Of a stretch of DNA of 53,480 bases, positions 21,001-24,000 are shown piece by piece. Positions within the stretch are counted from its first letter, which is position 1. Each line of letters opens with the position of its first letter. The DNA comes from a virus. Its lineage: Duplodnaviria; Heunggongvirae; Uroviricota; Caudoviricetes. A program made the position numbers. The stretch lies in the IMG/VR virus record IMGVR_UViG_648028025_000004. One strand, given 5' to 3'.

Positions 21001-24000
21001 TCCGCTTCCGGCTTTTTAACTCTGTTCCTCTACACGGGAGAAATTCGATGTCGATTAAACATTACGATGTTGTCAGGGCGGCGTCGCCGTCAGACCTTGC
21101 GGAAAAGCTGACACACAAACTGAAAGAGGGCTGGCAGCCATACGGCGGACCGGTTGCCATTACGCCGTACACACTGATGCAGGCGGTGGCTATTGAAGGA
21201 GAGCCACAGGTCGGCCCTTCATCTGAGCCGGATTGGTACTACGTCATCGTACTGGCCGGGCAATCCAATGCCATGGCTTACGGTGAAGGGCTTACGGTGA
21301 AGGGCTTCCGCTGCCGGATTCATACGATGCTCCGGATCCGCGCATTAAACAGCTGGCGCGCCGCAGTACAGTGACGCCGGGCGGGGCTGCCTGCAGATAT
21401 AACGATATTATTCCGGCTGACCACTGTCTGCATGATGTGCAGGATATGAGTACGCTGAATCATCCGAGGGCTGACCTGAGCAAAGGGCAGTACGGCTGTG
21501 TCGGCCAGGGTTTACATATTGCCAAAAAACTGCTCCCGTATATCCCGAATAACGCGGGGATCCTGCTGGTACCATGCTGTCGTGGTGGTTCGGCATTTAC
21601 CCAGGGCGCGGAGGGGACATTCAGCGAGTCCACGGGGGCCAGTCAGGATTCGGCACGCTGGGGGGTGGGCAAGCCGTTATATCAGGATCTGATTTCCCGC
21701 ACAAAAGCGGCATTGCAGAAAAATCCCAAAAACGTTCTGCTGGCCGTCTGCTGGATGCAGGGTGAGTTTGACATGAGCGCCGCCACCCACGTACAGCAAC
21801 CTGCGCTGTTTACAGCCATGCTGACACAGTTTCGTGCTGACCTCTCCGTGTTTAACGCGCAGTGCCATGGTGGCAGTGCTGCAGATGTGCCGTGGGTTTG
21901 TGGTGACACGACGTATTACTGGAAAAATACATACGCTACCCAGTACGACACCGTGTACGGCGGGTATAAAAACAGGGAGAGTGAGGGCGTTTATTTTGTG
22001 CCCTTCATGACAGACGGTAACGGCGTCAATACCGCCACTAACGCGCCGGCAGAAGATCCGGATATTCCGGCATCAGGATATTACGGTGCGGCATCGAGAA
22101 CGAATGGAAACCAGGTATCATCAAACCGCCCGACACATTTCAGTTCATGGGCGCGCAGGAGCATTATTCCGGATCGTCTGGCAACCGCTATTCTGAACGC
22201 AGCCGGGCGCACCTCAGCCTTCATCAGTGGTAAGGCACCGGAAATCAAACCCTCGCCCGGCGGCAACACGCCATCGGGTCCGTTTGCAGATACGTCCGTT
22301 CGCACAATCTCCCTGCTGCCGGCAGCCGGAGAGGCTGCTGCGCAGGGCTGGAGCATTAAGGATGGCGGAATTCAGTTGTCAGATGGTGTATTTAAGATCA
22401 CCAAGCAGAGCAATAAAACCTGGTCCCTGACGCATCCGGTGGATGACGCAATTACCCTGCTGACACAGGGCGGCAGACTGACCTGTAAGTTCCGCCTGTC
22501 AGGCGCACTGACCAACAATCAGTTCGGGCTGGGGATTTATCTGTATACGGATGCTCCCGTTCCTGATGGTGTGGCGATGACGGGTACCGGTAATCCGTTC
22601 CTGATGTCGTACTTCACTCAGACCACTGACGGCAGAGTGAATCTGATGCATCACAGGAAAGCCGGAAACACGAAGCTGGGGGAGTTCGGCGATTACGGTA
22701 ACGACTGGCAGACGCTGGAGCTGGTGTTCACCGCCGGCAGTGCCACGGTTACTCCGAAACTGAATGGAGTGGCTGGCCCGGCATTCCAGGTTATAAAAGA
22801 CAGTCTGACACTGGGACTGAATGCGCTGACGCTGACGGATGTTACAAAAAATGCAGCGTATGGCGTTGAGATAGAAAGTCTGATGCTGGAGATAAATGCA
22901 CCGGCAGCATAATAAAAAAAGCCAGCGACTGACCTGAAAAAGAAGACGCTGGCTAAAAGGCCTTATATGTTTGTAGAGACTTATTTTTCACAGACAGCAA
23001 TGATGCCTGTCAATATATTATCAATATGCGGATTGTTTCAGTTACAGATGCCTTATTAAGGAAAAAAACAGCCAGCACTGACTTTCGGTGGAGAGGTGCT
23101 GGCTCAAAAGGATAGATGTACTTCACATGTTGCTTCTATATGGCAGTACATTTTCTGACAGACAGTGACGGATGTTGTCAAGATATTGTGTCATTTATAA
23201 CCTGAATCAGGGGAGGCCGGAATGTTATCTGGCATTTTTAGCAGAGCCTGAATGCCATAATCACGGCTCCCGGCGTTGGCCGTCAGTGGGTGACACTGGC
23301 GGCTTTTTTGTTTTTCTTTACTTTCATTTTCTGTCGGCGGTGACGGAGACATACATCAGATGGAAAAAATCACAACAGGTGTGTCATACACCACGTCAGC
23401 GGTGGGGACGGGATACTGGTTACTGCAGCTGCTGGACAAAGTCTCTCCGTCCCAGTGGGTGGCAATAGGTGTGCTGGGAAGTCTGCTGTTTGGCCTGCTG
23501 ACGTATCTGACAAATCTTTATTTCAAGATTAAAGAAGATAAGCGTAAGGCTGCGAGAGGTGAATAATGTCGCCGTCATTACGCAAGGCTGTTGCAGCTGC
23601 TATTGGTGGTGGGGCTGTTGCCATAGCGTCTGTGCTCATCACTGGTCCAGGTGGTAACGATGGTCTGGAAGGTGTCAGCTACATACCATACAAAGATATC
23701 GTTGGCGTATGGACTGTATGTCACGGACACACCGGAAAAGACATCATGCCCGGTAAAACGTATACCGAAGCAGAATGCAAAGCCCTCCTGAATAAAGACC
23801 TTGCCACGGTCGCCAGACAAATTAACCCGTACATCAACGTCGATATACCGGAAACAACGCGCGGCGCTCTTTACTCGTTCGTTTACAACGTGGGCGCTGG
23901 CAATTTCAGAACATCGACGCTTCTTCGCAAAATAAACCAGGGCGATATCAAAGGCGCATGTGATCAGCTACGGCGCTGGACATACGCTGGCGGTAAGCAA

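Follow-up and report, generated by a model that had tools for sequence, protein, structure and literature searches.

The NanS-p enzymes that EHEC prophages encode remove O-acetyl groups from Neu5,9Ac2 and mucin glycans, enabling lysogens to grow on these substrates; activity is known for the EDL933 and O104:H4 alleles only (reviewed in PMC8065619). The NanS-p proteins of Stx phages, such as 933W z1466 and phi24B vb_24B_21/gp84, are built from three domains: an N-terminal DUF1737 domain, a SASA/SGNH esterase domain, and a C-terminal jelly-roll. Their genes lie 3′ of the antiterminator gene Q (and of stx) and 5′ of the holin gene S (PMC8065619, PMC10462455), giving the order Q-stx-nanS-p-S (PMC10462455). 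According to a 2026 preprint (bioRxiv 10.64898/2026.04.10.717836), DUF1737 serves for capsid decoration in phi24B: gp84 undergoes proteolytic processing, after which just its DUF1737 part (to Gly54) remains on the capsid. The chromosomal E. coli NanS (YjhS; Protein Data Bank entry 3pt5) shares the catalytic SGNH/SASA domain with the protein described below, including the GQSN motif and the histidine of the ..HFSS.. block, but lacks both the DUF1737 N-terminal domain and the C-terminal jelly-roll; it is not prophage-borne.

The DNA analyzed here, which we refer to as the window, is a 53,480-nucleotide stretch from IMG/VR (record IMGVR_UViG_648028025_000004) holding a lambdoid prophage next to ybhC (ybhC at 1-1284, integrase at 1422-2489). 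The ybhC site is the lambda attB. The prophage contains a nanS-p-like sialate O-acetylesterase pseudogene at 21048-22912 (+ strand) that would encode 616 residues were it not for a 14-bp duplication. Upstream, the Q-to-S "moron" region is bounded by the antiterminator gene Q (18888-19577, +; coordinates carried over from the prophage of E. coli E2865 by adding 1047), and downstream by a lysis cassette at 23360-24497 (+) encoding a class II holin S (23360-23566), the lysozyme RrrD, and an Rz-type lysis protein. The order of Q, esterase, and holin is the one expected for a nanS-p gene and the same as in phage 434. A first-pass annotation of this DNA had proposed that the gene occupies the place where Stx phages carry the large gene downstream of the toxin genes; its position between Q and the holin and lysis genes agrees with that proposal, matching the Q-stx-nanS-p-S arrangement (PMC10462455). 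Unlike in the Stx phages, the window gene is frameshifted and has no stx upstream: the interval from Q to the esterase contains no stx genes, and the window as a whole is free of tRNA genes. Most Stx2a-phage nanS-p copies share only 80-90% DNA identity with the window gene.

The similarity to phage 434 extends across the region. From Q's upstream neighbors to the lysis genes, the window reads LpxR, YlcG, Q, membrane protein, DUF3927, esterase, class II holin, lysozyme, and Rz, and phage 434 shares the order LpxR, YlcG, Q, membrane protein, DUF3927 (TciB), and esterase, followed by the pinholin and SAR endolysin genes. Its esterase, gp71 (UMO75335.1, a SASA family carbohydrate esterase), is 5 nt and 2 amino acids apart from the gene obtained by removing the duplication (99.7% identical). 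The difference is that in phage 434, a viable lambdoid phage, this gene is intact. After Q in the window come a pR′-like promoter (19561-19589) and a tR′-like terminator (19623-19644), and a strong hairpin resembling an intrinsic terminator, for which phage 434 has a counterpart annotated as a terminator, stands just 5′ of the esterase gene (20935-20953, +). These elements together place the esterase in the Q-antiterminated late transcript.

Several other features of the prophage were recorded along the way. An LpxR-family lipid A deacylase gene (17453-18412, − strand) lies between a truncated antiterminator remnant and ylcG/Q, as in phage 434, and is a moron gene with a possible role in outer-membrane remodeling. 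The intergenic stretch leading from lpxR to ylcG/Q holds an AT-rich 17-bp tandem repeat (18596-18631; 2.1 copies, 85% matches). Farther downstream, an ORF in the tail-fiber region (44178-45395) contains collagen-like Gly-X-Y repeats, which correspond to a 45-bp tandem repeat at 45030-45120 (two copies, 84% identity), and gives weak NCBIfam matches to Scl/Lcl collagen-like adhesins. The right end of the prophage carries the type III secretion system effector kinase gene nleH (45766-46653; NCBIfam NF041316, 560 bits), beyond which lies an IS66-family element (TnpA and transposase, 48680-51292).

Within the esterase gene, the 14-mer ACGGTGAAGGGCTT occurs twice in direct tandem, at 21280-21293 and 21294-21307, as the first-pass annotation had read it. 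Tandem Repeats Finder agrees, reporting an array at 21275-21307 (period 14, 2.4 copies, 100% matches) that is the sole perfect array among the three tandem repeats it finds in the whole window. The surrounding sequence runs GCCATGGCTT, then ACGGTGAAGGGCTT ACGGTGAAGGGCTT, then CCGCTGCC. A 5-bp microhomology, GGCTT, borders the 14-mer unit on both sides, so that the placement of the inserted 14-mer is ambiguous within 5 nt, and we delimit the frameshifting lesion (+14 nt) as GGCTT plus the two copies, that is, 21275-21307 on the + strand. We estimate analytically that chance would produce a perfect 33-nt array of period 14 ~2e-6 times per 53 kb; weightier than this chance estimate is the fact that the second 14-mer is missing from near-identical homologues. 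The intact alleles contain a single copy, GGCTTACGGTGAAGGGCTT. Removal of 21294-21307 joins the 108- and 513-residue ORFs, as had been predicted, into one open frame of 1851 nt encoding 616 residues, and intact genes with exactly this DNA sequence (100% identity) exist in 15 complete E. coli genomes, which identifies the duplication as the cause of the frameshift.

The local sequence also points to how the duplication could have formed. The ancestor read GGCTT-ACGGTGAAG-GGCTT, so a 5-bp direct repeat at a spacing of 14 bp was already present. A 5-bp direct repeat so spaced is a classical substrate for replication slippage. We infer from this microhomology that slippage between the two GGCTT copies during replication may have produced the 14-bp gain.

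The repaired protein has the three-domain architecture of NanS-p, DUF1737 followed by SASA/SGNH and a C-terminal jelly-roll. Pfam identifies PF08410 (DUF1737) at residues 4-49, PF03629 (SASA, sialic-acid-specific acetylesterase) at 66-262, and PF20350 (DUF6645) at 467-577, each above its gathering score. A Protein Data Bank search pairs residues 60-379 with E. coli NanS/YjhS (3pt5, E=4.6e-122) and residues 421-613 with the crystallized C-terminal domain of phi24B NanS-p (6yp6, E=1e-29); the latter value, over ~190 residues, reflects a divergent C-terminal domain. Together, these matches substantiate the description of the gene as nanS-p-like. The intact genes that share its sequence, in DEC9B, F2_407_2_2, and 13 other genomes, are annotated as "SASA family carbohydrate esterase" (WP_000023271.1). 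When aligned, intact nanS-p homologues are single ORFs with one 14-mer, which argues against the two window ORFs being naturally separate genes. We had considered the product name "DUF6645 domain-containing protein" as a sign of a pseudogene and rejected it, the UTME-9 gene of that name being intact.

In the window, no uninterrupted ORF spans all of the NanS-p domains. The gene is divided into ORF1 (21048-21374, +; 108 residues, ending in TGA) and ORF2 (21371-22912, +; 513 residues, with a GTG start). Translation from the native start would end after 108 residues, consisting of the intact DUF1737 domain, the first strand of the esterase with the GQSN block and Ser73 (codon 21264-21266), and, following the last native residue, Leu82, a tail of 26 out-of-frame junk residues; the frameshift thus falls 9 residues past the GQSN serine. 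ORF2 begins at about residue 104 of the repaired protein and encodes the remaining SASA/SGNH domain and the C-terminal DUF6645 jelly-roll, leaving residues 83-103 of the catalytic domain absent from both ORFs. His359 (codon 22136-22138), the counterpart of the catalytic histidine of NanS in the alignment, belongs to ORF2. From general knowledge of SGNH hydrolases and NanS, we take Ser73 and His359 to be the catalytic residues. Both are conserved, yet they lie on separate ORFs instead of on the same polypeptide. Because the nucleophile would reside on one polypeptide and the remaining active site on another, with no chain containing all of it, we infer that the locus yields no active esterase. 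Split by +14 nt, the gene is therefore a pseudogene of the NanS-p family and not a functional member.

A full-length protein could nevertheless be made if a programmed −1 ribosomal frameshift or transcriptional slippage restored the frame at a cost of 5 extra residues. The geometry would allow it, since the sequence beyond the lesion continues in the −1 frame relative to ORF1, a frame that stays open from 21287 on, such that a −1 slip anywhere in 21287-21371 would yield the full-length product. Read in the ORF1 frame, however, 21287-21372 shows neither an X XXY YYZ heptamer nor a homopolymer run. The ancestral allele is intact and requires no such shift, and PGAP calls the gene merely "frameshifted" while flagging programmed frameshifts in the neighboring IS3 transposases. 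We regard recoding as exceedingly unlikely.

The two halves might instead be useful as they stand, with ORF1 acting as a stand-alone DUF1737 protein and ORF2 as a reinitiated lectin or as the part of an esterase that complements ORF1. DUF1737 residues 4-49 are untouched, and phi24B gp84 offers a precedent in which this part of the protein is what stays on the capsid after processing (bioRxiv 10.64898/2026.04.10.717836). The ORF1 stop and the ORF2 start also overlap as GTGA (21371-21374), a geometry that can support termination-reinitiation. Upstream of the GTG, however, no Shine-Dalgarno sequence is present, so the overlap is probably coincidental, and the remaining catalytic domain (including His359) and the lectin-like C-terminal domain would have no ribosome-binding site of their own. 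A complementing pair would in addition have to work without residues 83-103 and with the nucleophilic serine and the histidine on separate chains. As for decoration, the major capsid, decoration, and protease genes are lost from the prophage, leaving no capsid to decorate, and in other strains the locus decays by several further routes. We accordingly think a useful split gene improbable. ORF2 has no additional mutations relative to the intact allele; because divergence times are short, this conservation is uninformative about selection, being by our own estimate also expected if the event is recent.

We next consider the distribution of the duplication. A 64-nt query over the repeat was dropped, as BLAST joined two pieces and made one- and two-copy alleles inseparable. 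The junction was instead probed with the 40-mer at 21272-21311, for which single-copy alleles give no 28-nt seed. Of 5426 complete E. coli genomes, 80 matched this probe, and in 79 the match was 100%. In a search with the full-length gene, the best 37 matches were 100% identical across all 1865 nt, and a 1-kb query including the upstream flank retrieved 82 records at ≥99%. The carriers belong to O26:H11, O111:H11, and O103, and all have the same prophage context. Those labeled O26 include FWSEC0001 (O26:H11), RM8426, and RM10386, together with 97-3250 and 2015C-4944, which have been typed as O26:H11 (PMC10462455); the O111:H11 carriers include 88.0502, 88-19539, and 8D, and RM8385 is an O103 carrier. 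Since the carriers share one allele and one flank, a single origin follows. The junction 40-mer was found in none of 50,697 phage records, and neither JGI metagenome contigs nor GTDB species representatives contained the junction; IMG/VR gave one junction match, in an isolate-derived contig.

This distribution bears on whether assembly or sequencing error created the second 14-mer in a gene that is truly intact. The identical junction recurs in 80 independent complete assemblies from many laboratories and platforms, as well as in the IMG/VR isolate contig, and it is always found in one allele and one flank. A non-homopolymer insertion of 14 nt is also not a typical mode of read error. The duplication is thus real, and the probability that it is an artefact is close to nil.

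The genomes lacking the second copy indicate which state came first. The prophage of the window is also present in DEC9B and F2_407_2_2, with the esterase likewise between the DUF3927 and holin genes, and their allele (WP_000023271.1) has exactly the 1851-nt sequence that the window gene gives after loss of one 14-mer. DEC9B is identical to window positions 15317-24115 except for one SNP and the 14 bp. These two prophages differ from that of the window in having a single 14-mer and an intact 616-residue ORF, and in retaining the repressor gene cI, cro, O, and ninF, along with intact head genes (protease, D, E, FI, FII, Z, and U). As the same prophage in a less decayed state has one copy, one copy is the ancestral condition.

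The carriers themselves differ in how far the prophage has decayed. O103 RM8385 is intermediate, having the duplication and an ISEc22-associated deletion of head genes while retaining the immunity region, O, and ninF. In the window and in E2865, cI and cro are additionally lost, O is frameshifted, and IS3-family and IS600 insertions are present; apart from which IS elements are present and where they are inserted, the window and E2865 prophages are ≥99.9% identical. The window contains an IS600 copy, an IS3-family copy, and ISEc22 (IS66-family), located at 7313-8577, 14006-15321, and ~30394-32846. ISEc22 replaces the head genes from the 3′ end of the protease gene through the 5′ end of U, and a deletion has removed the 3′ end of sieB together with cI and cro, with a junction near 10448. 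With its immunity region deleted, O frameshifted, head genes deleted, and three IS elements inserted, the window prophage is dead. The strains form a graded series of decay, from DEC9B to RM8385 to E2865 and the window, in which the duplication arose early.

One carrier departs from the two-copy state. NZ_OY754853.1 (isolate GPT21-004_1) has three copies of the 14-mer (6004-6050 of the stretch examined) in a pseudogene of 1879 nt that is still out of frame. Of its 34 in-gene SNPs, 32 cluster at positions equivalent to 21373-21896 of the window, a pattern suggestive of gene conversion with a nanS-p paralogue as donor. Heterogeneity in repeat copy number, for which the earlier annotation had advised looking, therefore exists only marginally, with two copies in 79 genomes and three in one. 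The repeat evidently can slip further, but does so rarely.

The occurrence of one, two, and three copies in the same prophage across strains is what would be expected if the 14-mer were a contingency tract for phase variation, with the esterase OFF at two or three copies and ON at one or four. Short tandem duplications are, moreover, intrinsically prone to slippage. Slippage is, however, much rarer in two-copy 14-mers than in the classical contingency repeats with many copies. Exactly two copies are present in 79 of the 80 carriers, a four-copy allele was not seen, and no single-copy revertants in the decayed-prophage lineage were found among the strains examined; the single-copy O26-type strains examined have the less decayed, ancestral prophage. 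With the repressor region and head genes gone, nothing obvious is left for a switch to regulate. Phase variation is accordingly very unlikely, slightly more so than a useful split gene, and we give similarly little credence to the broader proposal of a slippage-prone switch that either toggles the esterase or uncouples a DUF1737 product from a reinitiated lectin-like product. Were such a switch real, what is now called a pseudogene would be a variable two-product locus.

Loss of this gene is not exceptional, having also occurred by other routes. The orthologous esterase gene of 2015C-3107 (2048-3898 of the stretch examined) has a single 14-mer and an internal stop and is annotated as a pseudogene, an independent inactivation. 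In S88 and EC21Z-151, a 1.5-kb deletion has cut the gene to an N-terminal remnant annotated as "DUF1737 domain-containing protein." This S88-type deletion falls exactly at an imperfect 16-bp direct repeat within the gene, formed by CTGGCCGGGCAATCCA and CTGGCCCGGCATTCCA (21252-21267 and 22773-22788 of the window), and it represents a second, independent route of decay at the GQSN site. In some Stx2a phages, IS insertions disrupt the same locus (PMC10462455). The carrier genomes each have up to 10-13 places that match the esterase gene, consistent with the multiple nanS-p alleles of EHEC (PMC8065619).

Taken together, the evidence makes it highly probable that the locus is a dead copy of a NanS-p-type gene, originating by slippage, deprived of its esterase, and inherited vertically as the prophage decayed. 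On this account, the lesion would have arisen once, in the ybhC-site prophage of the H11 EHEC/EPEC lineage, and the frameshifted allele would then have been passed on vertically alongside progressive prophage decay, with the many other nanS-p paralogues probably buffering the loss. That the gene is a pseudogene is already in public records, PGAP/RefSeq marking the identical stretch as a "frameshifted" pseudogene in E2865, RM8385, and OY754853; it is an ordinary inherited frameshift in a defective, toxin-free prophage of O26-type E. coli. Our literature search found no paper describing the 14-bp duplication or the frameshift itself. What is added here is minor: the identity of the lesion, its single origin, its distribution over 80 genomes, and its place in the decay series.

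The 28-nt junction provides a clean single-origin marker for an H11 EHEC/EPEC sublineage (O26:H11, O111:H11, and O103) and helps in establishing the sequence in which the ybhC-site prophage decayed. Biologically the case carries little weight, one of several redundant nanS-p copies having been lost as a cryptic prophage decays. It does mean that counting nanS-p copies in EHEC genomes gives too high a figure for functional esterases.
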